From contig DAOTXS010000097.1 in NCBI GenBank assembly GCA_034435055.1, positions 66,864 to 130,863 on the forward strand: a stretch of 64,000 nucleotides of DNA. The letters run 5' to 3'. Position 1 is the first letter of the stretch. Each line of letters opens with the position of its first letter. Of the stretch, positions 1-47,225 are shown piece after piece. The notes under the pieces were generated by a model. That model saw only the letters and a list, made by a program, of their open reading frames with translations, made no database searches and was not told the DNA's origin. This stretch comes from Anaerolineae bacterium. Its GTDB lineage: Bacteria > Chloroflexota > Anaerolineae > UBA4142. A program made the translations under genes and the position numbers.

Positions 1-1598
1 AGTAAAATTGCGTGTGTGTCCGCCGCGACGACCGGTCGCGTGGTGAATTGCGCGTTGCGAAAATTCCGCAGATACCAAACGATGATCGGATTCGACGCGT
101 CGGCAGAAATCGTGAGCGTGTGTGAGTCGTTCACGCGCCAACGCGAGACATTTTCGATGTCGCGCACCAAATCGCGCACATTCGCCGCGCCGGCGCGCGC
201 GACCAAGTATTCGCGGGGATCCAAACTGCCGGCGAAATTCAACATCATCGATTGACGAAAGGTCCACGCGGCAAGAATGGTTAGCACAATCGCCATCGCC
301 ACATCTTTGGCGCGATGAATGCCGACGGTGGCAACAATCAAAAACGCGACGGCGGCGACAGCGATGGTCAAGAATAACACCACCAATAAACCACCGGCGT
401 TGGCAAGTTGCAAAGTCGATGCTAGGATTTCGGTTGCCAAAAGATTGCCGCGCGTCGAAAGTTCGGCGAGGGTGAGGTAGAAAAATGCGGCGATGGTCAA
501 CGGGAGCAAATAGACCGGCAGTTCTTGCGCGAAAAATCCGGATCGATCAGTTGCGTCGATTGCGCATTCTAGCCAATTGCCCAAAAACCAACCGGCGACC
601 AACGCGAGTGGCACCGTCAGCACGACAACGCGCGCCGGGTGTTTGTCTTCGCCAAGCGAGTACAGCACGAACGCGATGCCAATCCACAACGACAACGCGG
701 CGAGCGGAATATGTGATCGATCGTTCGCGCTTGCGGTGAACGAAAGTTGGATCACCGCGGCGACGCCAAAGAAAAACGCAATCGGTTCATAGACGATGAG
801 TAAACGGAGTGGATCGAACAAGGCGATGCTGGGACGCAAACCGGCAAGCCACGTGTTGATGAGTTCGAACGTTGCGCCTAAACCTTCACGGTGCGTCAAG
901 CCGGTCGTCGCCACACCTACAAGGACGATTGCGAACAACGCTCCCGCGAACCGCCAATGACGCATTTCCAAGTTCGATTGATTCCACACGCGCGTCGTGA
1001 GCGCAAAAAATAAAATTGCACCGACAATCGTCCACGTCTCGCGCGCGGCAACGAGCGCAAGCGCGGCGAAGACCGCGGCGAGATTGAGTGCGCGCGGCGA
1101 TTCATCGTCGAACGCGCGCCACGCAAACGCGACGGCGGCAAACGCGCATGTTACCGCGATGATCGCGCCGTCGGCGGTGCGCGAAAATAAAACAAGCGAC
1201 GGTGACAACGCCAATAACGCGGAGGCAATCAGCGCGCCAGACCGTCCCAGTTCGCGGCGCAAAAGTGCGGGAAGCAAAACTAACATACTGCCAAACAAAG
1301 CCGGGACTAATCGCGCAGTAAAATCGGTTGCGCCGAAGAGCGTGAACAGAATCGCGTTGCCGGTGAACAACAGCGGACTGCCGGTTGTAGCAATCGAATT
1401 GCCGTTGATGAACTGCCACGACGCGATGGCTTGTTGCGCTTCATCAGCGTTGAGCGGCGCGGTATCCAAAATGAATAAACGCAGAAACAGCGCGACGAAA
1501 CCAAGCGCGACGTACAGCGCAGTTTCGATGGTCAGCGTGGATAAATTGAATGTGGAGGGTGCAAGTGATTCTGGATTATCGTGCGTAAATTCGGACAT
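1..1598 (-). CDS. Polytopic membrane protein, TIGR03663/Agl23-like (GT-C-like); 3' end runs off the window
   Basis: Absent from the supplied ORF track because it has no stop in the window. My own minus-strand translation from ATG 1598..1596 gives MSEFTHDNPESLAPSTFNLSTLTIETALYVALGFVALFLRLFILDTAPLNADEAQQAIASWQFINGNS... It stays open to position 3 (532 codons) and is hydrophobic throughout. The plus-strand ORF 997..1833 is its Ala/Ser-rich shadow. The start overlaps the upstream gene end by 23 nt. Confidence 0.6.
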   Translation of the reverse strand, partial: MSEFTHDNPESLAPSTFNLSTLTIETALYVALGFVALFLRLFILDTAPLNADEAQQAIASWQFINGNSIATTGSPLLFTGNAILFTLFGATDFTARLVPALFGSMLVLLPALLRRELGRSGALIASALLALSPSLVLFSRTADGAIIAVTCAFAAVAFAWRAFDDESPRALNLAAVFAALALVAARETWTIVGAILFFALTTRVWNQSNLEMRHWRFAGALFAIVLVGVATTGLTHREGLGATFELINTWLAGLRPSIALFDPLRLLIVYEPIAFFFGVAAVIQLSFTASANDRSHIPLAALSLWIGIAFVLYSLGEDKHPARVVVLTVPLALVAGWFLGNWLECAIDATDRSGFFAQELPVYLLPLTIAAFFYLTLAELSTRGNLLATEILASTLQLANAGGLLVVLFLTIAVAAVAFLIVATVGIHRAKDVAMAIVLTILAAWTFRQSMMLNFAGSLDPREYLVARAGAANVRDLVRDIENVSRWRVNDSHTLTISADASNPIIVWYLRNFRNAQFTTRPVVAADTHAIL

Positions 1599-4047
1599 TG
1601 CCATTTTCAAAAACCAATTGCAACACTTTTGCAAACTTGTCGATCTGCGCTTTTGCCAATCCGTACTTGACTTTTTCGCTCTGACCGACAACGACGAATT
1701 TTATAGCATACTTGTCGAGCAAAGTCAAAAGGTCTTTGGTATCCAAGGTTTGATAGATGCGTTGAATATCGCCCGCGCGGTCGATGCCGTTGCTGGGATC
1801 GAAATACAATTTGCTGTTGCCGCGCCACTGTGATTCGTGCCCCGCCCAACCCAACACGGTTGGCAAGCCGGTCGCCATTGAAATCCGATTGCCGTACGAA
1901 TATTCATCGCCCGGCGCTTCCAAGATCGTCGCGCCGCGCGGCGCGTTCGCGTTCAACCATTCGATTGCCGCATGATCGTCGGGGTTCGTCGCGCGAATCC
2001 ACGCAATACCGTCAAGGGTTGGCGGATTGCGAAAACCATTCGCGCGGTCGGGAATCGCGAGCGCGGGATAGATCAAACTCGCGCCGAGTAGAATTGTCAA
2101 AGCGACAATCCACGCGCCGCGTGCCAAACCGCGAAGCGATTGCAAAAGATAAACCATCGCGTACGTTCCCGCAATCGCAAACAGAGTCCACGCTTGAAAA
2201 TAAAATTTGAACACCGTGTTCATCCGCGAGCCGAACTGATCGCGCAGATACACAAACTCGACGCCGAACGTGAGCAAGAAACCGGTGAGCGCGAGCAACA
2301 ACGCAAACGTCACACTTGCATCGTCGATGCGAAGCGAAATGAGAACCACAATCGACGCGAGGAAAAGCGCGAGCAGAATAAAGAGCCACGGATCATCGAT
2401 CCACGGACGAAAGTAAGCGCCGAGGACGAGTGTCAAGAGATTGCCCGATGCGTTTGGCATCGCCGCGCGGGCTTGATCCTGCAACGCCGGCGTGAGTGCG
2501 AGAATGGTCAGTGCAAGCCCGGCGACGACGAGTGGAAACAGAATCGCGGCGGCGAGAAATGGCGCGGCGCGGCGGAACCACGCGCGCAAATTCATTTCGG
2601 TTTGCTCGCGCGTGAGTTGAATGATCCACGCGCCGAGTAAGAAAACAAACAAGCCAAACATGATGAGGTATTGATGCAGGCGTGTTTTGACAAAGAGCGT
2701 GGGGAGAATTCCGCCGGCTTGTGATTGAAAACTGACGAAGAACGGCAAGTACATCAAGATGCTGGCGATGCCCAATGTCGCGGCGAAAAAAATTACGTCG
2801 CGCGTGACATTTGTGTTCCATTCACTTTCGGCGCGATACCGTGCGATGGCAAACGCGGCGACCAAAATAAAACCGTACGGCAAAATGTCCCAGGAGTTGA
2901 GGAAGAACAAGCCGCCCAAGACCAGCGGATAAATTCCAAATTCCAAATTCCAAATTCCCAATAATGTTTGTTGAGATTTGAGATTGGGTATTTGAGATTT
3001 GGCGTTGAGCAGATTGAGTGCGACTGCAAGCGCGAGCAGGACAAACGGCAATGCGAGGACGTGCGGATGTAAATCGCCTAAAAGAAAACTGAATTGCGGA
3101 AACTCGTCGATCACTTCAACCGAGTTGCCGCCGATGACATCGTGCACCACCCGTGACGCGCGCCACCACCACCAATTGTCGGTGGGAATCCATGTGCCGT
3201 TGACTGTCGCTTGCGCGAGTCCTTTGATGTCGAGCCATTGCCAGAAATCGTCCGGCAGAATGCCGCGATTGTGCAGAATCTCGAACACGGATTCCAAATT
3301 GCCAACGACGGTCAAAAATATCGGCGCAAAAAAAGATAACGCCATTGCGCTCAAAGTTGGTATTTTAAATTTCGAGTCCCGAATCAAATTGTACGCGACG
3401 CCGTACGCGCCGGTTGTACCTAGTGCAAAGAGCGTAGCGATGGCAAGATTGAACGCCATACTCGATGGAATCCCGCTCACCAGCGTTAGCATCGCAACGA
3501 TGACGTAGCCAAAGTAGTAATAACTGATTGCGTAACCGGACAGCCACGGATCGAGCGGGGGAAAGCGTTCGCTTTGCAAGACACCGTTGAGAAACGCAAA
3601 CTCCATCGGTTTTTCGGTGAAGGTGATTTCCGGCATATACGCCCGCACGAAAACCCACAGCAAAAATGCGAAGGTGAAAACGAGTTCAGTAGCGAGGATG
3701 GTGGATGTGTTGGAGCGCAACCAATCGGCGAAGGACGGAGGACGAAAGACGAAAGACGGAGGTTCATCCTCGGTAATCGGTCTTTGGTCATCGGTCATCG
3801 GTCGTCCTGCGAGCCACCAGCTCAACGCCGCGACGCCGATCACCACAAGCAAAATTGCGCCGCGCGTGTTGGTTAGAAAACCAAGCGATGTCAAAAGCCA
3901 GAACGGGTACGCGACCAACAAAAGACCAAGTGGTTTGGTGAACGCATAACCGCGATCCGGCAAGTTGCGGAAAAATCGAAAGGCAAGCGGCAAAACTGCC
4001 AGCCCGATTAATTCAAGTAACAGCCACCAAAGCAAGACTTCTAGCAT
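1576..4047 (-). CDS. Chlor_Arch_YYY (DUF2298-type) integral membrane protein, 823 aa
   Basis: Long ORF with ATG at 4047. It has many predicted TM helices and the YYYxG motif 'AISYYYFGYVIV'. Its N-terminus (LPDRGYAFTKPLGLLLVAYPFW) is paralogous to residues ~745 onward of the 1563-aa protein. It carries two in-frame heptamer-hairpin insertions. Confidence 0.8.
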   Translation of the reverse strand: MLEVLLWWLLLELIGLAVLPLAFRFFRNLPDRGYAFTKPLGLLLVAYPFWLLTSLGFLTNTRGAILLVVIGVAALSWWLAGRPMTDDQRPITEDEPPSFVFRPPSFADWLRSNTSTILATELVFTFAFLLWVFVRAYMPEITFTEKPMEFAFLNGVLQSERFPPLDPWLSGYAISYYYFGYVIVAMLTLVSGIPSSMAFNLAIATLFALGTTGAYGVAYNLIRDSKFKIPTLSAMALSFFAPIFLTVVGNLESVFEILHNRGILPDDFWQWLDIKGLAQATVNGTWIPTDNWWWWRASRVVHDVIGGNSVEVIDEFPQFSFLLGDLHPHVLALPFVLLALAVALNLLNAKSQIPNLKSQQTLLGIWNLEFGIYPLVLGGLFFLNSWDILPYGFILVAAFAIARYRAESEWNTNVTRDVIFFAATLGIASILMYLPFFVSFQSQAGGILPTLFVKTRLHQYLIMFGLFVFLLGAWIIQLTREQTEMNLRAWFRRAAPFLAAAILFPLVVAGLALTILALTPALQDQARAAMPNASGNLLTLVLGAYFRPWIDDPWLFILLALFLASIVVLISLRIDDASVTFALLLALTGFLLTFGVEFVYLRDQFGSRMNTVFKFYFQAWTLFAIAGTYAMVYLLQSLRGLARGAWIVALTILLGASLIYPALAIPDRANGFRNPPTLDGIAWIRATNPDDHAAIEWLNANAPRGATILEAPGDEYSYGNRISMATGLPTVLGWAGHESQWRGNSKLYFDPSNGIDRAGDIQRIYQTLDTKDLLTLLDKYAIKFVVVGQSEKVKYGLAKAQIDKFAKVLQLVFENGNVRIYAR
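2931..3002. repeat. Heptamer-periodic imperfect hairpin repeat (AAATTCC x4 / TGAGATT x3-4), in-frame in a CDS
   Basis: The sequence is aaattcc aaattcc aaattcc aaattcc caataatgtttgt tgagatt tgagatt gggtatt tgagatt tgg. On the minus strand it translates as SQIPNLKSQQTLLGIWNLEFGIYP within the 823-aa protein. Confidence 0.85.
3730..3807. repeat. Heptamer-periodic imperfect hairpin repeat (GAAGGAC/GAAAGAC arm vs CATCGGT/CTTTGGT arm), in-frame in a CDS
   Basis: The sequence is gaaggac ggaggac gaaagac gaaagac ggagg ttcat cctcggt aatcggt ctttggt catcggt catcggt cgtcc. It translates as MTDDQRPITEDEPPSFVFRPPSF in the 823-aa protein. Confidence 0.85.
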
Positions 4048-4053
4048 CGATGT

Positions 4054-5616: not shown

Positions 5617-6467
5617 CTTCCTTGCCACCAATCCTTGCGCGAACGCGGGTCCATAAACGCGCCCGAGTCACGAATCACCACACCCACTTCTTCGCCGATG
5701 GCAGTCCCAACACCTTGCCCGGCAAACAATGCTGGCAAGCGTGCGCGTCCTGCTGCGTTCAGCGTTTGGTACAGCACGAGTAAATTTGGATCGACGCAAA
5801 TATTTTCCAAATGCAAAGTGTAACCCAGAACCACATTATCTTCGCGCGAGTATTTTAGGGTGAGGCGCGTAGGTGCGGCGTACAAGACCATCACTTCATA
5901 ACCATTTGGCAATCTACCAATGTCATAACCGGAACTTGGCACGCGAATTGTTTCCGTTCGCGTTGTGACCAACCCGGCAAGTGTGACCGGCGGATTGACG
6001 ATCGGGGTCGTGCGGCAATTACAATTCCAATCCCAGTTGTACACTTGATGCGTCGATGTGAAAACGCCAGTGCGATTATCGCTGAACAAACCGGGCAGTT
6101 GTGGCGCGGCAGGATCGCTTTGTCCCGGCAAATCGATCAAGCCCAGATATTGATTGGTTTGTGTGTAGCCGCGCAACGCTAGATTCAGGTCGGCGTGTTG
6201 TTCCGCCGGGCGATCCGTTGGCGCGGAGATGATTGTAACACTGCCGTACGATTCGTTCAACACCGGGCAGCGATTCGGTAAAGTAATCCACGGCAAATAA
6301 ATCGAGTGCGTCATTGCATCTGACGTACGCAAAAGCGGGCGATGACCCGCGGACTCTGGAATTGTGTTCGCACGGACGTTCGGTGCGCCGTCGGAAAAAA
6401 TAGCGCTGCCGATTGCAAGCGTCATCGCGCTGACGACGCTCAACCATTTGAGTAATTCGCACTTCAT
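5613..6467 (-). CDS. Secreted hypothetical protein (284 aa), no family recognised
   Basis: N-terminal signal-like segment MKCELLKWLSVVSAMTLAIGSAIF. It has ATGA overlaps with both neighbours (6464-6467 and 5613-5616). It contains a Cys cluster, NWDWNCNCR. Confidence 0.6.
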   Translation of the reverse strand: MKCELLKWLSVVSAMTLAIGSAIFSDGAPNVRANTIPESAGHRPLLRTSDAMTHSIYLPWITLPNRCPVLNESYGSVTIISAPTDRPAEQHADLNLALRGYTQTNQYLGLIDLPGQSDPAAPQLPGLFSDNRTGVFTSTHQVYNWDWNCNCRTTPIVNPPVTLAGLVTTRTETIRVPSSGYDIGRLPNGYEVMVLYAAPTRLTLKYSREDNVVLGYTLHLENICVDPNLLVLYQTLNAAGRARLPALFAGQGVGTAIGEEVGVVIRDSGAFMDPRSRKDWWQGR

Positions 6468-9400
6468 TTGTTCACTTGATAAATCGTCACGCCGGGATTT
6501 TGATAAACCAGTGCGAGGGCGCCGGCGCGCGCCATTGCGTCAAACTTTGCCAGCCCGGCGTGATCGTAAAACGCCATTTCTAATTCGCCGATGTACACAT
6601 ATCGCACATCGAAACGCTCCATCTGCGCCAACGCGATTTGCGGATCGCGGGTATTGTAAATCGTTCGCACAGTTTCCATTCGCCGGTCGATGATGCCGCC
6701 ATCGATGATCGAACGTTGTTGTTTCTGATGCCAGTCCCAGCCGATGACCGTCGGCAAGCCAGTGTAAATCGATACGCGCGATGCCCAGTGATACAACGGC
6801 GCATTGCCTTCCAAAATCACCGGCGAGCCGATTACATTCGCGCGCAACCACTCGAACGCTTGACGGTCGTATTCCAACGTCATATCCCGATCGCGGTCTT
6901 GATACGTGGCTGTTTTTAAAAATTCCATTCCATTCAAACCCGCAGGCGAACCAAGCACAAAGCGATCCGTTACTTTGGCGCGCGTCGCCGTAATCGTGTA
7001 CGTCAAACCAATAACGATGAGGATTGAAAAGATAAACCACCACGCAAAGGGCAAGACCGATGACCGCGGACGGATGACTGCGATATTTTCCTCCGTCATC
7101 GGTTGTCGGTTGTCCATCTGATGCAAGAACGCGATTCCGGTTGCCGCCGCGAGCGCGAAGAAATTCCACGCCTGCAAATAAAATTTGAACACGGTATTCA
7201 TTCTGCCAATATCGCCTTTGTACGTGATGAGCTCGACCATCATTGTCAACGCAAGACCGGCGGCAAGCAACAAGGCGATAAAACGTTCGCGTGCGTCGAG
7301 TTCCGGGCGCAAGAAAAGTAGCCCGGCAAGCACGAGCAACGGGAACGCTAGTGTAAACGCGGCGAGATTCAGGACAAGGAAGAAGGCTTCGATGACGATG
7401 AACGCAACGATAATCAGCGGTTGCCAGGTTGCCCACACCTCGCGTCGCGCTGGCGTATCGAATGTGCGCGCGATGAGATAGGTTGCAATCGCAAAAAGGA
7501 AAATGCCGTGAACGATAAAATACTGACCAAGTGTTGTGCGTTCGCCCTTCCACAATTCGGTGGCGAGATACGCGGTGGCAAAATTACTGACGAACGGTTG
7601 ATACAACCAACTGCTCAAAACGAAAACTGCGCCAAATCGCCACGCGACGCCGACGACCAAATCCAATGTGATTTCGCGACGCCGCGCGTACTCACCAATC
7701 GCAATCGCCGCGCCGATGACGAGCAAGTACGTCGGATAATCGGCGTAGTTGATTGCGCGCAGTCCGCCGATGACCAACGCGGCGACAATAACTTCGACGA
7801 CAGCGATTGGTGAAATTTGGATGACCGGCCAAAAAGGCAGGCGCGCGTCGTCGTTGTGCTCGCGCGCACGGAGCGCGTAGTTGATCGCGACGCCAATCGC
7901 AAGCATCGTGAACGGGAGTGCCATCAAATGCGCGTGCAAATCGCCGTAGAGAAAAGTAAAAAATGGAAATTCATTGATCGTGTCCGGAATTGTCCGCGTG
8001 GCGTTCCAATACCACCAACCCAGCGGCACATCGAACGACGCGCCGTCTGCGATTACGCGCCACGCGCCGGTGAAAATACTCGCCAGGATTGCGCCGGGAG
8101 CATCCAAGTTGCCAGCGCCAATTTTCATCAGTGTTTGTCCAATGAGAATGATTTGTCCCAGGTTGCCGATGACGGCGACGAACAAAACGGCGAGCAAGCC
8201 GGCGAAGATTGCCGGTTTTGTCATTGCGAGGAGCATTTTTTGTGACGTGGCAATTTCCAAGTTACTTGGGGATTGCTTTGCCGCTTTGTGGTTCGCAATG
8301 ACAGTGCAAGTCAGATTGAACGCCGCACTGAACGCGCCCGCGCCGAGCAACGCAAAGAACGTTGGGAGCGCGAGATTGTACGCGACTTCCGGGACGATGC
8401 CGGAAAATTTGATCAGCGTTGCGGTGATGAGTTGTCCAAAGTAATAATAGTTGATGAACCCGCCGGCAAACCACGGGTCGTACGCCGGAAACCACGTCGA
8501 TTTGATCATCGCGTTAAGATATGCAAAATCCATCGGCTTTTCGCCGCCGTACCACTGATGCCACAAATCTGGATTGCCGTAACGAATTAACAAGAACAAT
8601 CCAAAACACGCAAAGAAAACTAATTCTTCGACAAGGATGAGCCGGCGTTGCGCGCGTAGAAAATTTGCAATTTCGCTTCCGTGTCGCCAAACGATAATTG
8701 CACTGACGAGTGCAAGCAATACGATTATTAAACCGATGCTCGTGCGATTGAACGGGAGCCAATGGTAACTCGCCAAAATCCACGCGCCCCACGCGACGAG
8801 CAAAATTCCCAGCGATTTGGCAAACACATAACCGCGATCAATCAATCCGCGGAAAACGACAAACGCAACTGGAAACGCGAGCCAGCCAATCGACTGAATC
8901 AGCGCGAGCCACCCGATCACCGGCATTTGATTGATGAAATCATTCGGATGAAAAATTTCTGACCACGTGCCGCCGCTCTGTTGCGCCGCACGATCCGTTG
9001 GAGTGAGCAAAAGGGCAGTCTTTGCCTGCGTCGCTTCGCGGGGCCAGAAACGATACACTTCTTCCAGATCGATGCTGTTGAACATTGCGGAAATTTTTTC
9101 CGCCGAAAAGCGCGGCGACTTTTTAAAGATTGTTACTTTCGGATGATCGTAAACGGTAAATGTTTCGTCTGCGTCGTCGTCGATAAATTCGATGCCGAGC
9201 AATTGCGGACGCGATGTAAACTCGGCGACTTGATCGAAACCCAACGTGCCATCGAACAGCCACGCGTAATATTTCGTCGTCAGTGGATAACGCATCGGCA
9301 AGCGCGGAATCGAACCGTACAAGCGATTACTCGACAGGATGATGTAATCAGCGTCGTTGAGCCACCGAATCGCTTGCGCGCGTTTTTCCGGTGTATCTTC

Positions 9401-11155
9401 ATCGTACCAGTTCATCAACCCGTCGTCGCCGGGAAATTGCGCCGGCAAGCCGCGATACATTCCGCCAAACGGGTCGCGGCCATCGATGCGCAAGGGGAGC
9501 GGATCGTCCCAGCGTTCGTTCGCCAGTACCGAATCGCGCGGCACATGATCAAAAATCCAACGCGATGCGGTAACGCGCGAAACTGGACGGGTGTAGATCG
9601 ATGTGAACGCCGTCGCATAAAATAACGTGTAGCCGATGACAAAAATCGTTAGCGTGGCGACGGCGATGCGCGCAACTGTTGCATAACGCATCGCGCGCGC
9701 GGCGCGATCCCAGAGTTCGATCAAGAGCCAGCCGGCGCAAAGCGCAAGGAACGGATAGATTTGCAAAAAGTATCGCAGAGGTTTGACCCATTGTTGCCCG
9801 GTGTATGCAAACGTGATGCCAACCCAGGTTACGATAAGTAAATGTTTCCATTCACGAAAACGGATTAAGCGATATAGCGCAAACGCAAACCCAGCCCACG
9901 CGGTCAAACCTACTGCTATTCCCAAACCCCACCGCACCATATTTTCGAATGGGAAGAGGTACGCCGGGCGATCGGTCCATTGATGTCCGGGCGGATAATC
10001 TGCGCGCCCCGCCACAAGTTCGCCGATGTATGCCATATTGTCGGAGAATTGTGTGTTGACACCGCCCGCCCAAAATAATGCTACATCGAACATTGCACTC
10101 ACTGCGCCGTGACTGAGATCGAATGTTGGAATTTTCGGCGCGACGAAACTGGGTCCGTTGGCGGCGTACGGTTGAAAGATGCGGAAGATAATCAATGTGG
10201 CGATGCCGGCAATCGCCAGTCCGCCGAACGCGCGCGTGAATGCGGACATCAACGAATCGCCGATGGTCGGTGCGCTATTTTGCCAACCGACGGAGACGGA
10301 AACCGGCCCCAGCGATTTTTCGGTGACGATCGTTGCCGGTTGCTCTAGCGATTCCGGCGCATCTGCCGGCGATTGGGTGTGCGATGCCTGCCAGTACGCT
10401 CGCCATGCCGATGCCGCGACGATGACCGTGACGAATGGTGCGATGTTGATCCGCCCAGCCAGCGCGAGTCCGAACATCACGCCGGCAAATATAAAAGCTT
10501 GCCAATGCTTGCGCTCCGAAATATCGAGCGCGAACCAGAATGCCAGCAAGATTGGAACATTGGTAAACGTATCGACAGTGAAAAAATGCGATTGCTGAAT
10601 ATCGAGTACCGATGCTGCGAGAAACAATGCGCCGAGTAATGCCGCGCGCGTGTCGTACATTCGGCGACCGATGAAAAAAATCAGCAAGACGGTCGAAAGA
10701 TCGAATAACGCAGACAAGACGCGCCCGACGAGATGAACGTTGCCGTAACTGGCTTGCCCCAATATCTCGCCAACGATGCGTGTGAGAAAAATCGGAAAAG
10801 TGCCGTAAACAAATAGCCCAAAGTTGTGATTGTACGGATTGAGTGGCGAACACGCTGTATCGAAATATCCTCCCCATTTGGCGCAACCTTCAGGCGGACG
10901 ACTTGCCACATCGAAGCCGGGCAGCTGCAACGCGGAGGTAACCATCGTGAGAAAACGTTCGTCGGGATGGAGGTGTTGCTCCGCATCCCAGTTTACGCCG
11001 GTCAATCGCAAGACTGCGCCGAGCAGAAGAATCAGCGTCAGCGCACCGGCGACAAACCAGCCGGGAAGTGTGTGGTTGTTGGGAGGTTGGATTGTTTGAT
11101 CGAGTCCGTTGATCGGTTCAGTCATATTTTTTGATTGGGAGATTTTGTAAATCAT
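6464..11155 (-). CDS. Giant 1563-aa membrane protein: N-terminal GT39/ArnT-PMT-like half fused to a complete Chlor_Arch_YYY domain
   Basis: Uninterrupted ORF. The N-terminal half has a PMT/ArnT-like beginning (HLHPDERFLTMV and many TM helices). From ~aa 745 (FRGLIDRGYVFAKSLGILLVAWGAW) it parallels the 823-aa protein and includes 'FINYYYFGQLITA'. The start could instead be the ATG at 11125. Confidence 0.75.
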   Translation of the reverse strand: MIYKISQSKNMTEPINGLDQTIQPPNNHTLPGWFVAGALTLILLLGAVLRLTGVNWDAEQHLHPDERFLTMVTSALQLPGFDVASRPPEGCAKWGGYFDTACSPLNPYNHNFGLFVYGTFPIFLTRIVGEILGQASYGNVHLVGRVLSALFDLSTVLLIFFIGRRMYDTRAALLGALFLAASVLDIQQSHFFTVDTFTNVPILLAFWFALDISERKHWQAFIFAGVMFGLALAGRINIAPFVTVIVAASAWRAYWQASHTQSPADAPESLEQPATIVTEKSLGPVSVSVGWQNSAPTIGDSLMSAFTRAFGGLAIAGIATLIIFRIFQPYAANGPSFVAPKIPTFDLSHGAVSAMFDVALFWAGGVNTQFSDNMAYIGELVAGRADYPPGHQWTDRPAYLFPFENMVRWGLGIAVGLTAWAGFAFALYRLIRFREWKHLLIVTWVGITFAYTGQQWVKPLRYFLQIYPFLALCAGWLLIELWDRAARAMRYATVARIAVATLTIFVIGYTLFYATAFTSIYTRPVSRVTASRWIFDHVPRDSVLANERWDDPLPLRIDGRDPFGGMYRGLPAQFPGDDGLMNWYDEDTPEKRAQAIRWLNDADYIILSSNRLYGSIPRLPMRYPLTTKYYAWLFDGTLGFDQVAEFTSRPQLLGIEFIDDDADETFTVYDHPKVTIFKKSPRFSAEKISAMFNSIDLEEVYRFWPREATQAKTALLLTPTDRAAQQSGGTWSEIFHPNDFINQMPVIGWLALIQSIGWLAFPVAFVVFRGLIDRGYVFAKSLGILLVAWGAWILASYHWLPFNRTSIGLIIVLLALVSAIIVWRHGSEIANFLRAQRRLILVEELVFFACFGLFLLIRYGNPDLWHQWYGGEKPMDFAYLNAMIKSTWFPAYDPWFAGGFINYYYFGQLITATLIKFSGIVPEVAYNLALPTFFALLGAGAFSAAFNLTCTVIANHKAAKQSPSNLEIATSQKMLLAMTKPAIFAGLLAVLFVAVIGNLGQIILIGQTLMKIGAGNLDAPGAILASIFTGAWRVIADGASFDVPLGWWYWNATRTIPDTINEFPFFTFLYGDLHAHLMALPFTMLAIGVAINYALRAREHNDDARLPFWPVIQISPIAVVEVIVAALVIGGLRAINYADYPTYLLVIGAAIAIGEYARRREITLDLVVGVAWRFGAVFVLSSWLYQPFVSNFATAYLATELWKGERTTLGQYFIVHGIFLFAIATYLIARTFDTPARREVWATWQPLIIVAFIVIEAFFLVLNLAAFTLAFPLLVLAGLLFLRPELDARERFIALLLAAGLALTMMVELITYKGDIGRMNTVFKFYLQAWNFFALAAATGIAFLHQMDNRQPMTEENIAVIRPRSSVLPFAWWFIFSILIVIGLTYTITATRAKVTDRFVLGSPAGLNGMEFLKTATYQDRDRDMTLEYDRQAFEWLRANVIGSPVILEGNAPLYHWASRVSIYTGLPTVIGWDWHQKQQRSIIDGGIIDRRMETVRTIYNTRDPQIALAQMERFDVRYVYIGELEMAFYDHAGLAKFDAMARAGALALVYQNPGVTIYQVNK
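7053..7115. repeat. Heptamer-periodic imperfect hairpin repeat, in-frame in a CDS
   Basis: The sequence is aagaccg atgaccg cggacgg atgactg cgatatttt cctccgt catcggt tgtcggt tgtcc. It translates as MDNRQPMTEENIAVIRPRSSVLP in the 1563-aa protein. Confidence 0.8.
8220..8302. mobile_element. MITE-like palindromic element with GTCATTGCGA...TCGCAATGAC termini, read through in-frame in a CDS
   Basis: Terminal inverted repeats are gtcattgcga (8220-8229) and tcgcaatgac (8293-8302). Its reverse complement aligns with the intergenic copy at 43339-43427. It encodes NHKAAKQSPSNLEIATSQKMLLAMTK in the 1563-aa protein. Confidence 0.7.
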
Positions 11156-11179
11156 AAATCAGAAATCGGAAATCTGCAA

Positions 11180-13174
11180 TTACTGGCTTGGTACATAGAA
11201 TAACCGGAAATCATGTCCCGGCGTGCGCGAACGAACAATTTGTGTTTTGCCGTTCGGAAAAATTTGTTGCAGCACGACCCAGTTCTTTTCATCGCCAAAG
11301 TTGAGCACGTACAATTTATTGGCTGGGTCATCGACGTGCGCGCGCGCATCGTCGGCTTGCGGCAACGTCTGCTCCCAGCCAATCGCGTGCAAATTGATCG
11401 CCACGTTGCGTGTGTCAATCCAGTGCGGGTAGAGCAGAATCCACGTGTGGTTCAAATCAACCACGCCGCTGAAGGCGCGAATTGCCGCGGCGACCTCGGA
11501 TGAGTTCCACGAGCGCGCGCGATAATGCTCGTCAAAGTCGATGAAATAGCGAGTAAAGTTTGCGTGGATACTGGCAAGAATAATCAGCGTGATCAGTGTC
11601 AACGCGCCGACTCGACCCAGCATTGTATCTTTCATCGCGCGCGCAAGCCACGCAAGTGGCAATGCGACGACGATAAACACAAATGGAATTGCGCCGCCGG
11701 CGCGCACGACGCTGGGATTTTCATTTGGAAACGCAATGCTCAACGCGGACGGTAAAAGCATTGTGCCGAGTCCGATCAACACAAACGCGTACGCCATTTC
11801 CCGGTACCGCGCCAATCGATATATCGCGTACACAATGCCGAGCAAAAACAACGCGCCGGCAACATAATCGAGCGCGGGGTCGCCGGGAATCGCATTGGGC
11901 CACGCTTCATCGCCGATCCAATTGAACATCAGCGAGGCGCGAATCAGATTGCTGGCGAGGATGCTGAGGGGATTCTCGTTCACCGGTTGTTCGACGCCGG
12001 TCAGCCGCGTCGCCATGCGATAAAAAACATTGCCGGGATTTTCGGCGAGGTAGCGGGCGAACGGCATCAGAACGATGAGCGCAATTACGAAAAGCAAAAG
12101 GATGTTCGCCAAATAGCGACGCCAATCGGCGTGTTCGTTTTTCTGACTGATGATGAACCACACGCCGGCAAAGAGCGCAACTAGAATCGGCGCGATGCGA
12201 AACGCGTTGTAACCATTTAATCCGATTCCGAGAATCAACCCGGCGATCAAGAAATCGTTGCGGCGGTGATACTTGAACGCGCGAAACAAAAAGTACATCA
12301 ACGGCGCGATAAAGACTGGCGTAAATGGAAAACGCAAACCCATTCGCGCAATCGTGAGGGGCCATTTGCTGAACGCGATAAAAAGCGCGGCAAGCATTGC
12401 CACATCATCGTCGAATAATTCGCGCGCGAAAAGAAATGTGAATGGAATGACCAGTACGCCCATCAACGCCGTGATCAACTTGAGCGCCATATGATCGATG
12501 GGATGCCCGGTCAGTTCGATAAATGCGGCGGTCAAATAAAATTGCAACGGTTCGCGCCCGGTGTTGCGCTCGAAGAAAATCGGACGGAGATCGTTGGTTA
12601 CGATGTCGTTCACGTCGAGCAATTTTTCGGCGTGGTCGCTGTCCATTTCCGCCGGCACCCCATCGAGATTGTGATAATAGAAAAATATCCCGATGAGCAT
12701 AATCGCGCCGAGCATCAACCCGCGCGGCGAAATGTATATACCATCGCTAAACATTTGGCGGATGGTTTGGATTTTTTTGCTCAACCGTATATACCATTCC
12801 ACGCCGCTTTTTTCCGGTTCCCAAAATGCATAGACAAAAACGCCGATACTCAACAGCCACGCGAAAACATTGTCGCCGTTGAATTCATTGCCGCCGGCAA
12901 AGAGAAAAGTCAAAGCGGTGAGGACGATTGCGCTAATCACCAACGCGCGCGACGCAGGTTTCGAATGTGGTTTGCCCGGTTGTGTTTCGTCGATGTGTGT
13001 CCGAATGTCAACACGCGCGAGTATGATTGCAACGAGCCAAATGCCGATTGCTGTCACAAAACCGGCGAGCGCGATCAGGGTCGAATGATGAAACGTGTGT
13101 TGGGATTGTGCGAATGCCGCACACGCAATTGCGGCAAGCGCAAGTACGGGCTGGGTCAGCGCGCGAGGATTCAC
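11180..13174 (-). CDS. Glycosyltransferase family 39-like (ArnT/PMT_2-type) polytopic membrane protein, 664 aa
   Basis: Many TM helices are followed by a soluble C-terminal domain. The general GT-C/ArnT-like layout is present (FERNTGREPLQFYLTAAFIEL...). It has a GTG start at 13174 in a GTGA overlap with the upstream stop. Confidence 0.6.
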   Translation of the reverse strand: MNPRALTQPVLALAAIACAAFAQSQHTFHHSTLIALAGFVTAIGIWLVAIILARVDIRTHIDETQPGKPHSKPASRALVISAIVLTALTFLFAGGNEFNGDNVFAWLLSIGVFVYAFWEPEKSGVEWYIRLSKKIQTIRQMFSDGIYISPRGLMLGAIMLIGIFFYYHNLDGVPAEMDSDHAEKLLDVNDIVTNDLRPIFFERNTGREPLQFYLTAAFIELTGHPIDHMALKLITALMGVLVIPFTFLFARELFDDDVAMLAALFIAFSKWPLTIARMGLRFPFTPVFIAPLMYFLFRAFKYHRRNDFLIAGLILGIGLNGYNAFRIAPILVALFAGVWFIISQKNEHADWRRYLANILLLFVIALIVLMPFARYLAENPGNVFYRMATRLTGVEQPVNENPLSILASNLIRASLMFNWIGDEAWPNAIPGDPALDYVAGALFLLGIVYAIYRLARYREMAYAFVLIGLGTMLLPSALSIAFPNENPSVVRAGGAIPFVFIVVALPLAWLARAMKDTMLGRVGALTLITLIILASIHANFTRYFIDFDEHYRARSWNSSEVAAAIRAFSGVVDLNHTWILLYPHWIDTRNVAINLHAIGWEQTLPQADDARAHVDDPANKLYVLNFGDEKNWVVLQQIFPNGKTQIVRSRTPGHDFRLFYVPSQ

Positions 13175-23888: not shown

Positions 23889-24230
23889 ATGCATGAATTA
23901 GGCATCGCTCAGGATATTTTCAAAATTGCAAGCGAGTATGCAGCCAAGCATAACGCGCAGCGTATTACTGCCTTTAACATCGAAATCAGTGCGGCAATGG
24001 ACGAAAGCGAAGAGGCGTTGCGTTTTCATATCGAGAATCTGGCACACGGCACGCTTGCCGAAGGCGCGACCATTGAAATTGCGCGTGTGCCCGCGCACCT
24101 CGTCTGTCTCGATTGCGGCAACGAGTTTGAACTGCGTGATGAGAATGTTGTCTGTCCGCATTGTGCGAGTGTACGCGTGCGTGCGCATTCGCACGACGAT
24201 TTCAAACTGACCAGCATCGAGATCGAGTAA
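23889..24230 (+). CDS. hypA: Hydrogenase nickel insertion protein HypA
   Basis: It has the N-terminal 'MHE' Ni-binding motif and the Zn site 'CLDCGNEF...CPHCAS'. Confidence 0.93.
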   Translation: MHELGIAQDIFKIASEYAAKHNAQRITAFNIEISAAMDESEEALRFHIENLAHGTLAEGATIEIARVPAHLVCLDCGNEFELRDENVVCPHCASVRVRAHSHDDFKLTSIEIE

Positions 24231-26599
24231 TGATCAAACGATTGCGTGCGGAAATTCGCGGCGCGGTGCAGGGCGTCGGTTTTCGTCCGTTTGTTTATCG
24301 GCTGGCGACCGAACTTGCGCTCAAGGGCTGGATCATCAACGATACACGCGGTGTCTTTATCGAAGTTGAAGGAGACGAGACAGCGCTGGCGCGTTTCATC
24401 GAACGCTTGCCAGAGGAAAAACCGCCCCGTTCGATCATTCATTCATTCGATTTGACCTGGCTTGCACCGGTTGGCTTTGCGCAATTTGAAATCCGTCATA
24501 GCGATGAATCGGGCGCGAAAACGGTGCTCGTCTTGCCCGACATTGCCACTTGCCCCGACTGTCTCGCTGAAGTTTTCGATCCAAGGAATCGGCGTTATCG
24601 TTATCCCTTTACCAATTGCACCAACTGCGGTCCGCGTTTTACAATCATCGAAGCCTTACCCTACGACCGTCCCAACACGACGATGCGCCGGTTCACAATG
24701 TGTGCAGATTGCCAACACGAGTACGAAAATCCGCTCGACCGGCGTTTTCACGCGCAACCGAATGCCTGTCCGGTGTGTGGTCCCACGTTAAAAGTTACAA
24801 GTTCCAAGTTCAAAATTGAGAACCTTGAACCTGAAACCTTGAACCTTGAACCCATCGCACACACCGCGCGTCTCCTCGCGCAAGGTTACATCGTCGCCGT
24901 CAAAGGTCTGGGCGGATTTTTGTTGATGGCGGACGCGCGCAACGCTGAGGCGCTGGCACGTTTGCGTGAGCGCAAGCCTCGCCGTGATAAACCGTTCGCG
25001 TTGATGGCGCGCGATCTGGTGCAAGCGCGCACGCTCGTTGAGCTAGACCCCCAAGCCGAAGCCTTGCTCACCTCGCCTGAATCGCCGATTGTGTTGTTGC
25101 GTCGTAAGCACAATGCGCCGGTTGCGGAGAATATTGCACCTGGCAATCCGTACCTGGGTGTGATGTTACCGTACACCCCCTTGCATCATTTGCTCTTACG
25201 CGCGATTGATTTTCCGGTCGTTGCCACCAGCGGCAACTTGAGCGACGAACCGATTTGCATTGACGAAACCGAAGCGGTGCAACGCCTAGGACACATCGCC
25301 GATTTCTTTCTTGTGCACAATCGTCCGATTGCGCGGCACGTGGACGACAGCGTGATGACCATCATGCTAGGCGAGCCGCGATTCTTGCGGCGCGCACGTG
25401 GATACGCGCCGATGCCGGTGTTGCTCAAACACGAGATTCCAACGATTCTGGGCGTTGGGGCGCATCTCAAGAATACAATCGCGCTATCGGTTCGCAACCA
25501 AGTCTTTATCAGTCAGCACATTGGCGATTTGGAAACGCCCGAAGCGATGAAGGCGTTCGAGCGCGTGATCGCCGATTTTCTGAAATTATACGAAGCGACG
25601 CCCATCGCCGTCGCGCACGATTTGCATCCGGATTATCTTTCGACTAAGTGGGCGCACGCGTGGATGACGAAAGACGAAAGACGAACGACGAATGATTCGT
25701 CCTTGGTCGTTCGTCCTTCGTCCTTGGTCGTTGTCCAGCACCACCACGCTCACCTTGCTGCGTGCCTCGCCGAGAATCAAGCCGACCGTGCATTGGGGGT
25801 GATGTGGGACGGTACGGGGTACGGAACGGACGGCACAATTTGGGGCGGCGAATTTTTGCTCGGCGATGCAAAAGATTTTGTGCGCGTCGCGCATCTGCGT
25901 CCGTTTCGCTTACCCGGTGGCGATGCCGCCATCAAAGAGCCGCGCCGTTCAGCGTTTGCATTGTTGTACGCAATGTTTGGTGAAGCGATCATCGAGCGCG
26001 ATGATCTGGCACCGATACGCACGTTGACATCGGCGGAACGCAAGACACTGGTGCAAATGTTGAGCAAAGGAATCAACTCACCGATCACCACGAGTGTCGG
26101 ACGATTATTCGATGGCGTTGCTGCGCTGATCGGTTTACATCCACACGTTTCGTTTGAAGGTCAAGCGGCGATGGCGCTCGAGTATGCGGTAGATGCGACG
26201 GTGAGGGACGCATACCCAATCGAGACGAAAGACGAAGGACGAAAGACGAGGGATTTGTCCTCCGTCGTTCGTCCTTCGTCCTCCGTCCTCGACTGGCACC
26301 CCCTCATCGAATCCGTGTTGAGCGACTTGTCACGCGGCATCGAACGGAGTATTATTGCGGCACGGTTTCATAACGCGCTTGTGCAAGCGATTGTTGCGGT
26401 GGCAAAACAAATCGGCGAGGAAAAGGTTGCGCTGAGCGGCGGCTGTTTTCAGAATCGTTTCTTGACCGAACGTGCGGCAACCGAACTCGCGCAAGCCGGC
26501 TTTCGCGTCTTGTTGCACCAACACGTTCCGCCGAATGATGGGTGTATCAGTTTGGGACAGGTGGTCGTCGCGGCGGCGCGTCTGACTACTAACCACTAA
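24230..26599 (+). CDS. hypF: Carbamoyltransferase HypF
   Basis: It has the acylphosphatase-like 'IRGAVQGVGFRPFVYRLA', two Zn-finger pairs (CPDCLAEV...CTNCGPRF; CADCQHEY...CPVCGP), and YrdC-like and Kae1-like regions. It forms a TAATG overlap with hypA. It contains three in-frame heptamer-hairpin insertions. Confidence 0.95.
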   Translation: MIKRLRAEIRGAVQGVGFRPFVYRLATELALKGWIINDTRGVFIEVEGDETALARFIERLPEEKPPRSIIHSFDLTWLAPVGFAQFEIRHSDESGAKTVLVLPDIATCPDCLAEVFDPRNRRYRYPFTNCTNCGPRFTIIEALPYDRPNTTMRRFTMCADCQHEYENPLDRRFHAQPNACPVCGPTLKVTSSKFKIENLEPETLNLEPIAHTARLLAQGYIVAVKGLGGFLLMADARNAEALARLRERKPRRDKPFALMARDLVQARTLVELDPQAEALLTSPESPIVLLRRKHNAPVAENIAPGNPYLGVMLPYTPLHHLLLRAIDFPVVATSGNLSDEPICIDETEAVQRLGHIADFFLVHNRPIARHVDDSVMTIMLGEPRFLRRARGYAPMPVLLKHEIPTILGVGAHLKNTIALSVRNQVFISQHIGDLETPEAMKAFERVIADFLKLYEATPIAVAHDLHPDYLSTKWAHAWMTKDERRTTNDSSLVVRPSSLVVVQHHHAHLAACLAENQADRALGVMWDGTGYGTDGTIWGGEFLLGDAKDFVRVAHLRPFRLPGGDAAIKEPRRSAFALLYAMFGEAIIERDDLAPIRTLTSAERKTLVQMLSKGINSPITTSVGRLFDGVAALIGLHPHVSFEGQAAMALEYAVDATVRDAYPIETKDEGRKTRDLSSVVRPSSSVLDWHPLIESVLSDLSRGIERSIIAARFHNALVQAIVAVAKQIGEEKVALSGGCFQNRFLTERAATELAQAGFRVLLHQHVPPNDGCISLGQVVVAAARLTTNH
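24792..24853. repeat. Heptamer-periodic imperfect hairpin repeat (AAGTTCC arm / AACCTTG arm), in-frame in hypF
   Basis: The sequence is aagttac aagttcc aagttca aaattgag aaccttg aacctga aaccttg aaccttg aaccc. It encodes KVTSSKFKIENLEPETLNLEP. Confidence 0.85.
25663..25736. repeat. Heptamer-periodic imperfect hairpin repeat (GAAAGAC arm / TCGTCCT-TGGTCGT arm), in-frame in hypF
   Basis: The sequence is gaaagac gaaagac gaacgac gaatgat tcgtcct tggtcgt tcgtcct tcgtcct tggtcgt tgtcc. It encodes MTKDERRTTNDSSLVVRPSSLVVV. Confidence 0.9.
26222..26290. repeat. Heptamer-periodic imperfect hairpin repeat (GAAAGAC/GAAGGAC arm / GTCCTCC-GTCCTTC arm), in-frame in hypF
   Basis: The sequence is gaaagac gaaggac gaaagac gagggat tt gtcctcc gtcgttc gtccttc gtcctcc gtcctc. 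It encodes ETKDEGRKTRDLSSVVRPSSSVL. Confidence 0.9.
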
Positions 26600-26618
26600 C
26601 CACTGATCACTGTTCACT
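26584..26618 (+). repeat. Tandem heptamer array (NNNCACT x5), single arm, spanning the hypF stop
   Basis: The sequence is gactact aaccact aaccact gatcact gttcact, followed by the hypC RBS ggagg. Confidence 0.7.
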
Positions 26619-26628
26619 GGAGGTTTTT

Positions 26629-26886
26629 ATGTGTCTCGGTGTTCCCGGCAAAGTGATAGCGATTCAACCCAACTCAGTTGGGATGACGATGGGCAAAGTG
26701 GATTTTGGCGGCATCGTCAAAGAAATTTGCCTTGCCTATGTGCCTGAGGTCAAAGTCGGCGAATACGTTATCGCGCATGCCGGCTTTGCGATTAGCACGC
26801 TGGACGAAAAAGAAGCGCGCGAGGTATTTGAAACGCTCAAGCAGATTGACGATTTGTCGTCGTTGGATATTCCGCAACCAGACTAA
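26629..26886 (+). CDS. hypC: Hydrogenase assembly chaperone HypC/HupF
   Basis: It has the N-terminal 'MCLGVPGKV' with the essential Cys2. The protein is 85 aa. Confidence 0.95.
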   Translation: MCLGVPGKVIAIQPNSVGMTMGKVDFGGIVKEICLAYVPEVKVGEYVIAHAGFAISTLDEKEAREVFETLKQIDDLSSLDIPQPD

Positions 26887-26946
26887 CGACGAATGACGAA
26901 TGACGAATGCATTCCTTCGTCCTTCGTCTTTGGTCCTTGGTCGAGG
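26884..26946. repeat. Heptamer-periodic imperfect hairpin repeat (GAATGAC arm / GTCCTTC arm), hypC-hypD intergenic
   Basis: The sequence is taacgac gaatgac gaatgac gaatgca ttccttc gtccttc gtctttg gtccttg gtcgagg. It lies just upstream of the hypD ATG at 26953. Confidence 0.85.
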
Positions 26947-45630: not shown

Positions 45631-46329
45631 ATGATCGAATTCTTACCTCGCGTGAGTGCAGTGATTCTCGCCGGCGGAAAAAGCCGGCGGATGGGGCGCG
45701 ATAAATCGTTTCTCGAATTTGACGGCAAACCGCTGATCAGTCGTGTGATCGAGCAAGCCGGCAAAGTTTGCGCCGAGACCATCATCGTAGCGAACGATGT
45801 TGAATTGTACCGACAGTTTGGCTTGCGTGTGGTGAGCGATGTTTTCCCCCACAAAGGTTCGCTGGGGGGATTATATTCCGGCTTGCTTGCCGCGCAAGAC
45901 GAGAATGTTTTGGCACTGGCGTGTGATATGCCTTTTCTCAATCCAGACCTGATCCGGTATATGATTTCGATCAAGTCAGAGTACGATGTGGTTATTCCAC
46001 GCGCGCGTGGACTCTCTGGGCACACGCCGCGTTCATCGAGCGAACGCAAACCGCGCGTGGATACTATCCCGCCACGCCCGGATCAAATGCTGGCGAAAGA
46101 AGCCGACCTCCATCCGTTACACGCGATTTATTCCAAACGCTGTTTGCCCATCATCGCCGAACGTCTCCGGGTTGACGATCTCCGCTTGATCAGTATTTTG
46201 CCAGATGTAAAAACCCGCATTGTAGAGGTCGCTGAAATTGATCGATTCGATCCCAAACACATTTCATTTTTCAACGCAAATACACCGGCAGATTTTGAAA
46301 TCGCCCAACGGTTGATGACCGATGTTTGA
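45631..46329 (+). CDS. mobA: Molybdenum cofactor guanylyltransferase MobA (with a ~30-aa internal insertion)
   Basis: It contains 'AVILAGGKSRRMGRDKSFLEFDGKPLI' and 'LACDMPFL'. At 232 aa it is longer than typical MobA proteins, because of the segment ARGLSGHTPRSSSERKPRVDTIPPRPDQ. Confidence 0.85.
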   Translation: MIEFLPRVSAVILAGGKSRRMGRDKSFLEFDGKPLISRVIEQAGKVCAETIIVANDVELYRQFGLRVVSDVFPHKGSLGGLYSGLLAAQDENVLALACDMPFLNPDLIRYMISIKSEYDVVIPRARGLSGHTPRSSSERKPRVDTIPPRPDQMLAKEADLHPLHAIYSKRCLPIIAERLRVDDLRLISILPDVKTRIVEVAEIDRFDPKHISFFNANTPADFEIAQRLMTDV

Positions 46330-47173: not shown

Positions 47174-47225
47174 CCGGAGACGGAAGACCGGGCATAACGG
47201 TCATCCGTCGCCGGTCTTCGGTCGA
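47165..47225. repeat. Heptamer-periodic hairpin repeat (GACGGAA/GACCGGN arm vs CGGTCNT arm) at the fdhD stop
   Basis: The sequence is gacggat gaccgga gacggaa gaccggg cataa cggtcat ccgtcgc cggtctt cggtcga. This forms a ~26-bp stem with 4 mismatches. The fdhD stop codon (47171-47173) lies inside the left arm. Confidence 0.85.

Follow-up and report, generated by a model that had tools for sequence, protein, structure and literature searches.

Inverted heptanucleotide arrays in frame within hypervariable loops of a DUF2298 membrane protein and of HypF in an Anaerolineae genome

How can a conserved membrane protein gene accommodate, within its reading frame, hairpins made of seven-nucleotide (nt) tandem repeats whose sequence changes from one hairpin to the next? 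We addressed this question in a 64,000-nt stretch of an Anaerolineae metagenome-assembled genome (MAG; assembly GCA_034435055.1, contig DAOTXS010000097.1, positions 66,864 to 130,863), hereafter called the window, in which two such elements, E1 and E2, are found in a single gene of 823 amino acids (aa). With moderate confidence, we interpret E1 and E2 as heptanucleotide microsatellites in inverted arrangement, belonging to a genome-wide class and similar to the STRRs (short, tandemly repeated and repetitive sequences) of cyanobacteria; they would be renewed by slippage and by templating of one arm on the other, and filtered by selection. We think that they are by-products of DNA metabolism and not devices with a function of their own. 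The data used throughout come from MAGs and metagenomes, gene calls are long open reading frames (ORFs), and the orthologs compared are not phylogenetically independent.

The host gene is an ORF on the minus strand (1576..4047) that encodes a full-length DUF2298 ('YYY domain') integral membrane protein (Pfam PF10060, E = 1.5e-115). A protein from an NCBI MAG (P0001) is identical to it and its homologs number in the thousands, being assigned to Chloroflexi/Anaerolineae wherever they are named; the 80 related genome loci were all from Chloroflexota MAGs (Chloroflexota/Anaerolineae). An assembly artefact was ruled out, since assemblies made independently of one another (NCBI, JGI and Logan) contain near-identical elements. 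A preliminary description of this stretch had proposed that each site consists of a heptamer block, a short spacer and a roughly complementary heptamer block, with one or two mismatches per heptad in the stem and with the reading frame maintained. This layout was confirmed at both sites by Tandem Repeats Finder (TRF) and by an inverted-repeat finder (Table 1). The latter delimited arms of 27 nt, 74% complementary and 13 nt apart, in E1, and of 29 nt, 72% complementary and 5 nt apart, in E2, which fits the proposed mismatch density, and neither element introduces a stop codon in the 823-aa ORF. E1 codes for aa 349-373 (KSQIPNLKSQQTLLGIWNLEFGI) and E2 for aa 81-107 (MTDDQRPITEDEPPSFVFRPPSF). As single strands, both form one stem-loop each, in which a heptad typically has six pairs, approximately, and a single mismatch. 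The minimum free energy of E1 is -23.0 on the + strand and -18.4 on the - strand (z = -3.0 and -3.9, respectively), and that of E2 is -34.5 (+) and -26.6 (-).

Table 1 Heptamer arrays and hairpins in the window (positions counted from the first letter of the window).
Feature	Position	Units or length	Context	Support
E1 left array	2931..2962	(AAATTCC) x 4.6 on +		TRF: period 7, 96% matches
E1 spacer (hairpin loop)	2963..2970	8 nt		sequence, fold
E1 right array	2971..3002	(TTGAGAT) x 4.4	approximate complement of the left array	TRF 2971-3001: 75% matches
E2 left array	3729..3762	(CGAAGGA/GACGRAR) x 4.9 on +		TRF: 81% matches
E2 spacer (hairpin loop)	3763..3769	7 nt		sequence, fold
E2 right array	3770..3807	(TCGGTCA/TTGGTCA) x 4.9		TRF 3770-3803: 81% matches
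E3 hairpin	7055..7120	GACCGAT/ATCGGTC family	in frame in the 1563-aa PMT_2 + DUF2298 gene (6464..11155, minus)	
E4 solitary array	11145..11180	AAATCAT/AAATCAG/AAATCGG/AAATCTG on +	without partner arm	
E5 hairpin	24784..24852	GTTACAA-like / GAACCTT	in frame in hypF (24161..26599, +)	
E6 hairpin	25661..25736	GACGAAA / TTCGTCC	in frame in hypF	z = -6.4
E7 hairpin	26221..26292	AGACGAA / GTCCTCC	in frame in hypF	z = -8.0 (+), -9.8 (-)
E8 solitary arrays	26582..26620	ACTAACC, CACTGAT	hypF stop codon and the intergenic region behind it	
E9 hairpin	26879..26943	GACGAAT / TCCTTCG	hypD start or immediately upstream of it	z = -4.8
E10 hairpin	47164..47224	14-nt alternating units GACGGAT GACCGGA / CGGTCAT CCGTCGC		z = -5.7

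E1 and E2 belong to a set of ten heptamer loci in the window, eight of them hairpins (E1-E3, E5-E7, E9 and E10) and two of them solitary arrays (E4 and E8). Six of the eight hairpins are in coding sequence, the non-coding ones being E9 and E10. The 7-nt period is specific: with a criterion of 17 self-matches out of 21 applied uniformly, 13 segments of the window have period 7 and not one has a period of 4-6 or 8-11, and a scan of the window plus the 80 related loci yielded 202 arrays of period 7 as compared with 48 of period 8, 15 of period 6 and 7 or fewer of any other period. The octamer arrays, which form the second commonest class and whose unit is not a multiple of three either, are sometimes found beside heptamer arrays at the same hot spots, as in locus L005 (3640-3665, at the E2 site, (ACCCAATC)n) and in L076, L045, L041 and L077. 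Period and layout are common to the window hairpins without a common sequence, as the preliminary description had noticed for E1 and E2. Pairwise identities among them range from 0.40 to 0.79 and define four unit families, and no 20-mer is conserved among the elements.

We compared the pairing of the arms with that of null arrays in which the seven columns of the right arm were permuted, keeping tandem structure and composition. The earlier question of whether the pairing surpasses that of shuffled arrays received a positive answer for the window hairpins as a class, E1 and E2 being marginal when taken singly. The eight hairpins jointly gave a Fisher combined p of ~1e-5 (calculated by hand from the column-permutation values), with + strand p values from below 0.003 to 0.24 for those other than E1 and E2. 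In the window and the 80 loci, complementary units (6/7 or better) occurred in 16% of adjacent arrays vs 1.9% of random array pairs, an enrichment of ~8 times, and about a third of the multi-array clusters (~20/58) had a significant hairpin on both strands. The inverted layout is strongly enriched, yet it is not obligatory.

Comparison with orthologs revealed that these elements sit at hot spots. DUF2298 orthologs with 57-84% identity have hypervariable repetitive peptides (e.g., TTDDEGR x 3 or NSKFKIQ) at exactly the E1 and E2 positions, and the DNA of 13 close orthologs contains at these sites heptamer (occasionally octamer) arrays that differ in units and lengths. Others have minimal loops, either at E2 (P0005, P0025 and P0026) or at E1 (P0069, P0070, P0074 and P0076). 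The hypF orthologs exhibit the same hot-spot behaviour at three sites, with the insert missing in P0130 and P0131 at E5, in P0150, P0151 and P0163 at E6, and in P0166 at E7. The preliminary description had called for a check of presence and absence in relatives and had considered that the inserts could be ordinary loops conserved in all orthologs; in fact, some orthologs are devoid of them, and almost every close ortholog has the sites filled, yet what fills them is hypervariable heptamer arrays and not an ordinary conserved loop. In the DUF2298 family as a whole, arrays cluster at about aa 80-110, 215-255 and 350-400. The hot spot at aa 215-255 is occupied in L004 (10705), L007 (10682-10764), L010 (10642-10697) and L067 (10645); the window gene has no obvious array there and reads ...RDSKFKIPTLSAM..., which may be a decayed remnant.

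Turnover at the occupied sites is rapid. In strain L085 (GCA_964553815.1; 98.0% nt identity) E2 and E4 are identical to those of the window, with one substitution in E1 and four in E3. By contrast, L082 (97.3% nt identity) has 13 substitutions in the 79-nt E2 with unchanged length, that is, a substitution rate about six times the background. These changes are concerted: (CGTCTTT) x 2 became (CGTCTTC) x 2, with the same change in adjacent units, and further changes affected the other arm. The resulting hairpin has an energy of -42.8 vs -34.5 in the window (antisense strand), the two chimeras between them having -36.2 and -35.1. Eight of the 27 amino-acid differences of P0121 are inside E2. We saw no length changes among strains at 97-98% nt identity; further away, in L081 (DUF2298 protein 84% identical), one E2 arm has been replaced by (ACGCATC)n and E1 shows changes of +14 and -5 nt. 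In hypF, we compared L086 and L087, relatives at 85% and 79% nt identity. At the E6 site, L086 (1720-1797) and L087 have a hairpin that belongs to another family, (CAAGTTN)n / (GAAACCT)n, the one that also forms E5; both arms have been replaced together and the flanking codons differ too (KWAHAW vs KWAREQ). In L087, the E7 right arm has 21 additional nt, exactly three units, E5 has 18 additional nt, and the E8 site is occupied by a hairpin of another family. The net differences in length are divisible by three, with whole-unit steps between relatives as in heptanucleotide long simple sequence repeats (LSSRs). The hypF-hypC intergenic spot seems to be a general hot spot for insertions: in L086 (2689-3115) this gap harbours a DUF433/DUF5615 gene pair, toxin-antitoxin-like, exactly at the place of E8 and of the L087 hairpin.

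The two arms of an element also change in a coordinated way. Using a fixed strand and a midpoint split, we compared native arms with chimeras between orthologs. At the E1 site, the mean energy was -18.1 for native arms vs -13.4 for chimeras on the antisense strand (p = 0.0006) and -15.7 vs -13.2 on the sense strand (p = 0.027); at the E2 site, the effect was weak (p = 0.048 antisense, 0.20 sense). The arms thus co-vary, clearly in E1 and weakly in E2. The preliminary description had viewed such co-variation as a sign of selected pairing, but arm-to-arm templating would give the same pattern.

The peptides encoded by the elements are located in loops. In a confident AlphaFold model of the 823-aa protein (predicted local distance difference test, pLDDT, 85.6; predicted template modelling score, pTM, 0.90), the pLDDT falls below 50 only at residues 86-102 (within E2), 170-175 and 351-366 (within E1), and the E1 and E2 peptides are thus predicted to be disordered loops between helices. 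With respect to the solved HypF structure 3VTH, E5 is a 10-aa insertion, E6 adds ~14 residues and E7 is a 13-aa insertion. Since three heptamers make seven codons, the 7-aa repeat obtained from an array is identical in all reading frames apart from a cyclic permutation, and the peptides of the two arms are 'reverse complements' of each other (e.g., TKDERR... with ...SSFVFRP). Among all possible heptamers, 69% are free of stop codons as arrays in all frames, and 50% are so on both arms. In the E2 sense strand, two GATGACC units are followed by AAAGACC, where a third GATGACC would create an in-frame TGA; L082 has GAAGACC at this unit, which also avoids the TGA. Part of the 'imperfection' of these arrays is thus a footprint of the reading frame. 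The depletion of arrays in coding sequence is only mild: ORFs of at least 250 aa hold 80% of the arrays and make up 85% of the bases.

Arrays inside ORFs of the window and the related loci have a biased sense strand (A 0.27, C 0.30, G 0.19, T 0.24 vs 0.19, 0.30, 0.30, 0.21 in ORFs). Being G-poor and A-rich, this strand usually makes intragenic hairpins fold worse as mRNA than as antisense. Accordingly, the + strand folds better for E1, E2 and E3, which are in minus-strand genes, and the - strand for E5 and E7 in the plus-strand hypF, E6 being neutral. The better-folding strand flips with gene orientation within the 64-kb window, so the asymmetry is tied to the coding strand and a cause linked to the replication strand was rejected. 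For the non-coding E9 and E10, the sense strand of the operon folds slightly better. We also discarded as a separate class some 'antisense-only' hairpins with G-U pairs (L007 10240-10335 and E2 of L081), which reach -42 vs -9 kcal/mol, yet have a z of only ~-3 against strand-specific shuffles; they mostly reflect the G-poor, A-rich sense strand.

These features can be assembled into the following scenario. Replication slippage in 7-nt steps would make, resize and homogenise the arrays, as suggested by the concerted changes in adjacent units and by the 21-nt expansion in L087. Two periodic arms could then pair in any 7-nt register, and intrastrand fold-back or template switching would copy one arm from the other, generating the inverted layout and keeping the arms complementary. 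Copying of this kind would account for the joint change of the two arms. In this scheme, turnover may be essentially neutral and selection would act only as a filter on the reading frame, the absence of in-frame stops, the location in a tolerant loop and, perhaps, weaker mRNA stems, and the hot spots would correspond to each protein's few permissive loops, kept or filled anew in most lineages. The preliminary suggestion of a mechanism that propagates a structure and no fixed sequence is partly supported, being borne out as far as architecture, co-variation and ortholog polymorphism are concerned, while selected pairing and a specific generator stay hypothetical.

Several observations weigh against this interpretation. 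Its slippage and templating steps are inferred from the patterns described above, and the scheme does not account for the 7-nt length of the unit. Arm co-variation is equally expected from selection for pairing. Taken singly, the two elements pair only slightly better than what column permutation produces (p = 0.11 on either strand for E1; p = 0.04 on + and 0.10 on - for E2). The swap of a whole hairpin family at E6 is hard to achieve by gradual slippage and fits better copying from another place or a palindrome arising de novo, and the GACGAAA family recurs at unrelated sites of one genome (E2, E6, E7 and E9), as would also be expected of an element that disperses. Finally, avoidance of stop codons only partly accounts for the G-poor, A-rich sense strand: as a full cause it was rejected, as it predicts G 0.255 and A 0.21 vs the 0.19 and 0.27 seen.

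Alternatively, the hairpins might be maintained by selection as RNA or single-stranded DNA structures involved in mRNA stability, in translation pausing between transmembrane segments or domains, in translational coupling or in protein binding, with co-variation resulting from selected pairing. We consider this unlikely. The advantage of native arms over chimeras at the E1 site (p = 0.0006 to 0.027), the changes in both E2 arms of L082 that strengthen its hairpin, and the re-establishment of the hairpin layout with another unit family at the E6 site are all as this explanation would have them, as are the better folding of the non-coding E9 and E10 on the sense strand of their operon and the near constancy in L081 of the solitary E4 in its 5' leader. 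Moreover, the STRR hairpins of cyanobacteria have been suggested to make transcripts more stable or to couple translation (PMC2670836). However, it is the mRNA strand that folds worse in E1, E2, E3, E5 and E7 and in most intragenic hairpins of other loci (~14 vs 4 in a hand count of cases that are not phylogenetically independent), and this asymmetry reverses with gene orientation, the sense strand having A-C mismatches where the antisense strand has G-U pairs. In addition, many orthologs carry non-complementary arrays at the same sites (e.g., L003 and L005), and the substitution rate of E2, far from being lowered, is about six times the background. A scan of the 64-kb window on both strands at the Rfam gathering score gave 0 matches, and no intrinsic terminator was found at E10.

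We give little credence to miniature mobile palindromic elements, similar to MITEs (miniature transposable elements with inverted repeats), Rickettsia palindromic elements or the repetitive extragenic palindrome (REP) doublets called REPINs, inserted in frame by a transposase encoded elsewhere. The elements do form palindromes of 60-90 nt and, as comparison with a solved homolog shows, are inserted in frame in conserved proteins; they vary in presence or absence among orthologs, one unit family occurs at several unrelated sites of the same genome and one site (E6) has seen its family replaced. Furthermore, the elements in a hypF of probable Verrucomicrobiota origin (L143) have a common core of ~30 nt, like a small dispersed repeat. 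In the window, however, the elements have no common conserved sequence, termini or loop core, inspection of the flanks of E1-E3, E5-E7, E9 and E10 revealed no target-site duplication, and the whole element is itself the inverted repeat. E6 and E7, the most similar pair, were examined as candidate copy-paste paralogs and rejected as such because controls with permuted unit order are just as alike (mean identity 0.77) as the pair itself (0.78; p = 0.41). The same sites are filled in orthologs down to ~57% identity, with drifting units and unit-step changes, which fits evolution in place better. As for selection at the protein level on ordinary low-complexity linker loops, with an incidental DNA period, we find it very improbable. 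Disordered loops between helices are indeed what the inserts encode, and a loop is present at these places in almost every close ortholog, but the DNA period is 7 nt and not 21 nt, one peptide repeat corresponding to three identical heptamers in three frames. In addition, each second arm is its partner in reverse complement, intergenic regions hold the same arrays (E8, E9 and E10), and the peptides vary even at 84-97% overall identity.

Heptamer arrays of this kind extend well beyond the window. In 80 metagenome hypF loci and L086, we counted 68 arrays of period 7 as compared with at most 6 of any other period from 5 to 12; many of these hypF loci are only 54-57% identical to the HypF of the window. 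Two proteins ~72% identical to the HypF of L156 are named as Verrucomicrobiota and, judging from such sequence affinities, in-frame heptamer arrays, including hairpins (L143), probably occur in this second phylum. In-frame arrays of AATCCGC, GCGGAAT, GAGTGCG and AAATCCG were seen in the hypF genes of L143, L156, L152, L134 and L160. The two L143 hairpins (2735-2850 and 3610-3730) have a common core of ~30 nt, ACGGCTCG(C/T)G(G/A)GGACGCTCG(C/T)(C/T)CCACC, between inverted heptamer arrays, and encode the peptides NTARGDARPTKT and NTAREDARSTET; they look like a small dispersed repeat nested in heptamers. A bolder possibility would be an active, structure-templated or enzyme-driven process that writes palindromic period-7 arrays into chromosomes, coding sequences included, in at least two phyla (Chloroflexota and, probably, Verrucomicrobiota), continually rewriting specific loops, with both arms made together and families copied between sites. 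We see only a small chance that this is the case. Literature searches for heptamer hairpins in Chloroflexota/Chloroflexi or Verrucomicrobiota/Verrucomicrobia, whose coverage was incomplete, found nothing.

Heptamer repeats have been known since 1990 in cyanobacteria. STRRs, the short tandemly repeated repetitive heptamers of cyanobacteria, were reportedly described by Mazel et al. in that year. Their units are CCCCAGT (STRR1), TTGGTCA (STRR2) and CAACAGT (STRR3), and their hosts are filamentous heterocyst-forming cyanobacteria. The preliminary description had pointed to a resemblance between E2 and these repeats. TTGGTCA, which we take to be the STRR2 unit, does occur once in E2, within a right-arm array that has the consensus TCGGTCA, but the link is only an analogy. 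In common with STRRs, the arrays studied here have 7-nt tandem units, several families per genome, often an inverted, hairpin-forming disposition, and variability between relatives. In contrast, their host is a Chloroflexota (Anaerolineae-type) MAG and not a heterocystous cyanobacterium, most of their units differ (AAATTCC, TTGAGAT, GACGAAA, GAACCTT and others), and 80% of them are in long ORFs and translated in frame, whereas STRRs are described as intergenic or as part of RNase P RNA, the latter reportedly by Vioque in 1997. The elements of the window work like STRRs but, by unit sequence and host, they are not members of that class. Rickettsia palindromic elements, which Ogata et al. are said to have described in 2000 as families of ~100-150 bp with a conserved consensus and thought to be mobile, are likewise palindromic, in frame in conserved genes, responsible for an extra surface peptide and present or absent among orthologs; unlike them, the elements here have no conserved consensus, are built of tandem 7-mers and evolve in place by unit steps. 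Very small dispersed repeats (SDRs) of Nostoc, within or next to heptamer arrays and inside genes, were reportedly found by Elhai et al. in 2008. They resemble the layout of the L143 hypF hairpins, with their ~30-nt core between inverted heptamer arrays, but not the window elements, which have no shared core.

Among other systems, the long-unit repeats with the strongest over-representation in many prokaryotes are heptamers, for which polymerase slippage has been proposed, with the polymerase contact length suggested as the reason for the 7-nt unit, the only such suggestion that we encountered (Mrazek 2007, as cited in PMC4679880 and PMC4692102). As summarised in these citing papers, heptanucleotide LSSRs agree with our arrays in the over-representation of period 7, in slippage as proposed cause, and in having conserved positions with variable length and sequence between close relatives (PMC4679880, PMC4692102). 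They differ in that the density of our arrays in coding DNA comes close to that in non-coding DNA, and the paired inverted layout and the intragenic hot spots do not feature in that description. Cyanobacterial 7-bp STRR arrays are known to form intergenic hairpins of unknown function (PMC2670836; Pradhan 2022 preprint) and a 2015 paper states that no detailed literature on heptamer repeats exists (PMC4692102). REPINs and REPs, associated with REP-associated tyrosine transposases (RAYTs), are also doublets of short repeats that form hairpins and are dispersed through the genome (PMC3116915), but REPs are extragenic, conserved over ~20 nt and RAYT-linked, and no conserved 20-mer exists here. The TAACTGA repeats of Beggiatoaceae are heptamer tandem arrays common upstream of start codons, to which E4 is comparable, although they consist of a single unit, almost always in direct orientation, and are intergenic (PMC4679880). 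The placement of E4 recalls the heptamer arrays upstream of start codons in both Beggiatoaceae and Nostoc.

What this locus adds is the occurrence of heptamers in another phylum, paired as hairpins, translated, and restricted to a small number of permissive loops in proteins that are well understood, HypF among them. For the protein, this means a disordered loop of hypervariable sequence at each of the few hot spots that a gene permits. Turnover is fast enough for comparisons at the strain level, and the orthologous hot spots provide many replicate natural experiments on the origin, complementarity and replacement of arrays, in which the reading frame serves as an internal filter that leaves a legible footprint in the variants of the units. 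These elements are also a source of hypervariable loops and length variation in MAG proteins, and are thus relevant to alignment, annotation and structure prediction.

The remaining elements of the window provide additional details. E3 has a fold z of -4.4 on the + strand and column-permutation p values of 0.017 (+) and 0.000 (-). E4 is at the 5' end of the 1563-aa PMT_2 + DUF2298 gene or just upstream of its probable start; it is almost unchanged in L081, and the intragenic hairpins diverge fast. E8 forms no hairpin (fold z about 0). A terminator scan of E9 gave a weak consensus match inside the element, no more than in shuffles. E10 lies between ORFs 46322..47173 (fdhD-like) and 47239..48501 (moeA-like), named by reading their translations only, and 0 of 300 column-permuted nulls reached its native energy.

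Lastly, the host gene of E1 and E2 is part of a conserved cluster of large membrane glycosyltransferase-like genes (1-14000 in the window; also in L081, L082 and L085). Its members are PMT_2, PMT_2 + DUF2298, DUF2298, STT3-like, NHL-repeat PMT_2 and LPG_synthase_TM proteins, together with two unannotated secreted proteins of 284 and 525 aa (the latter of 520 aa as called in relatives). The cluster is syntenic in Anaerolineae MAGs and is the site of most of the arrays found in the related loci.

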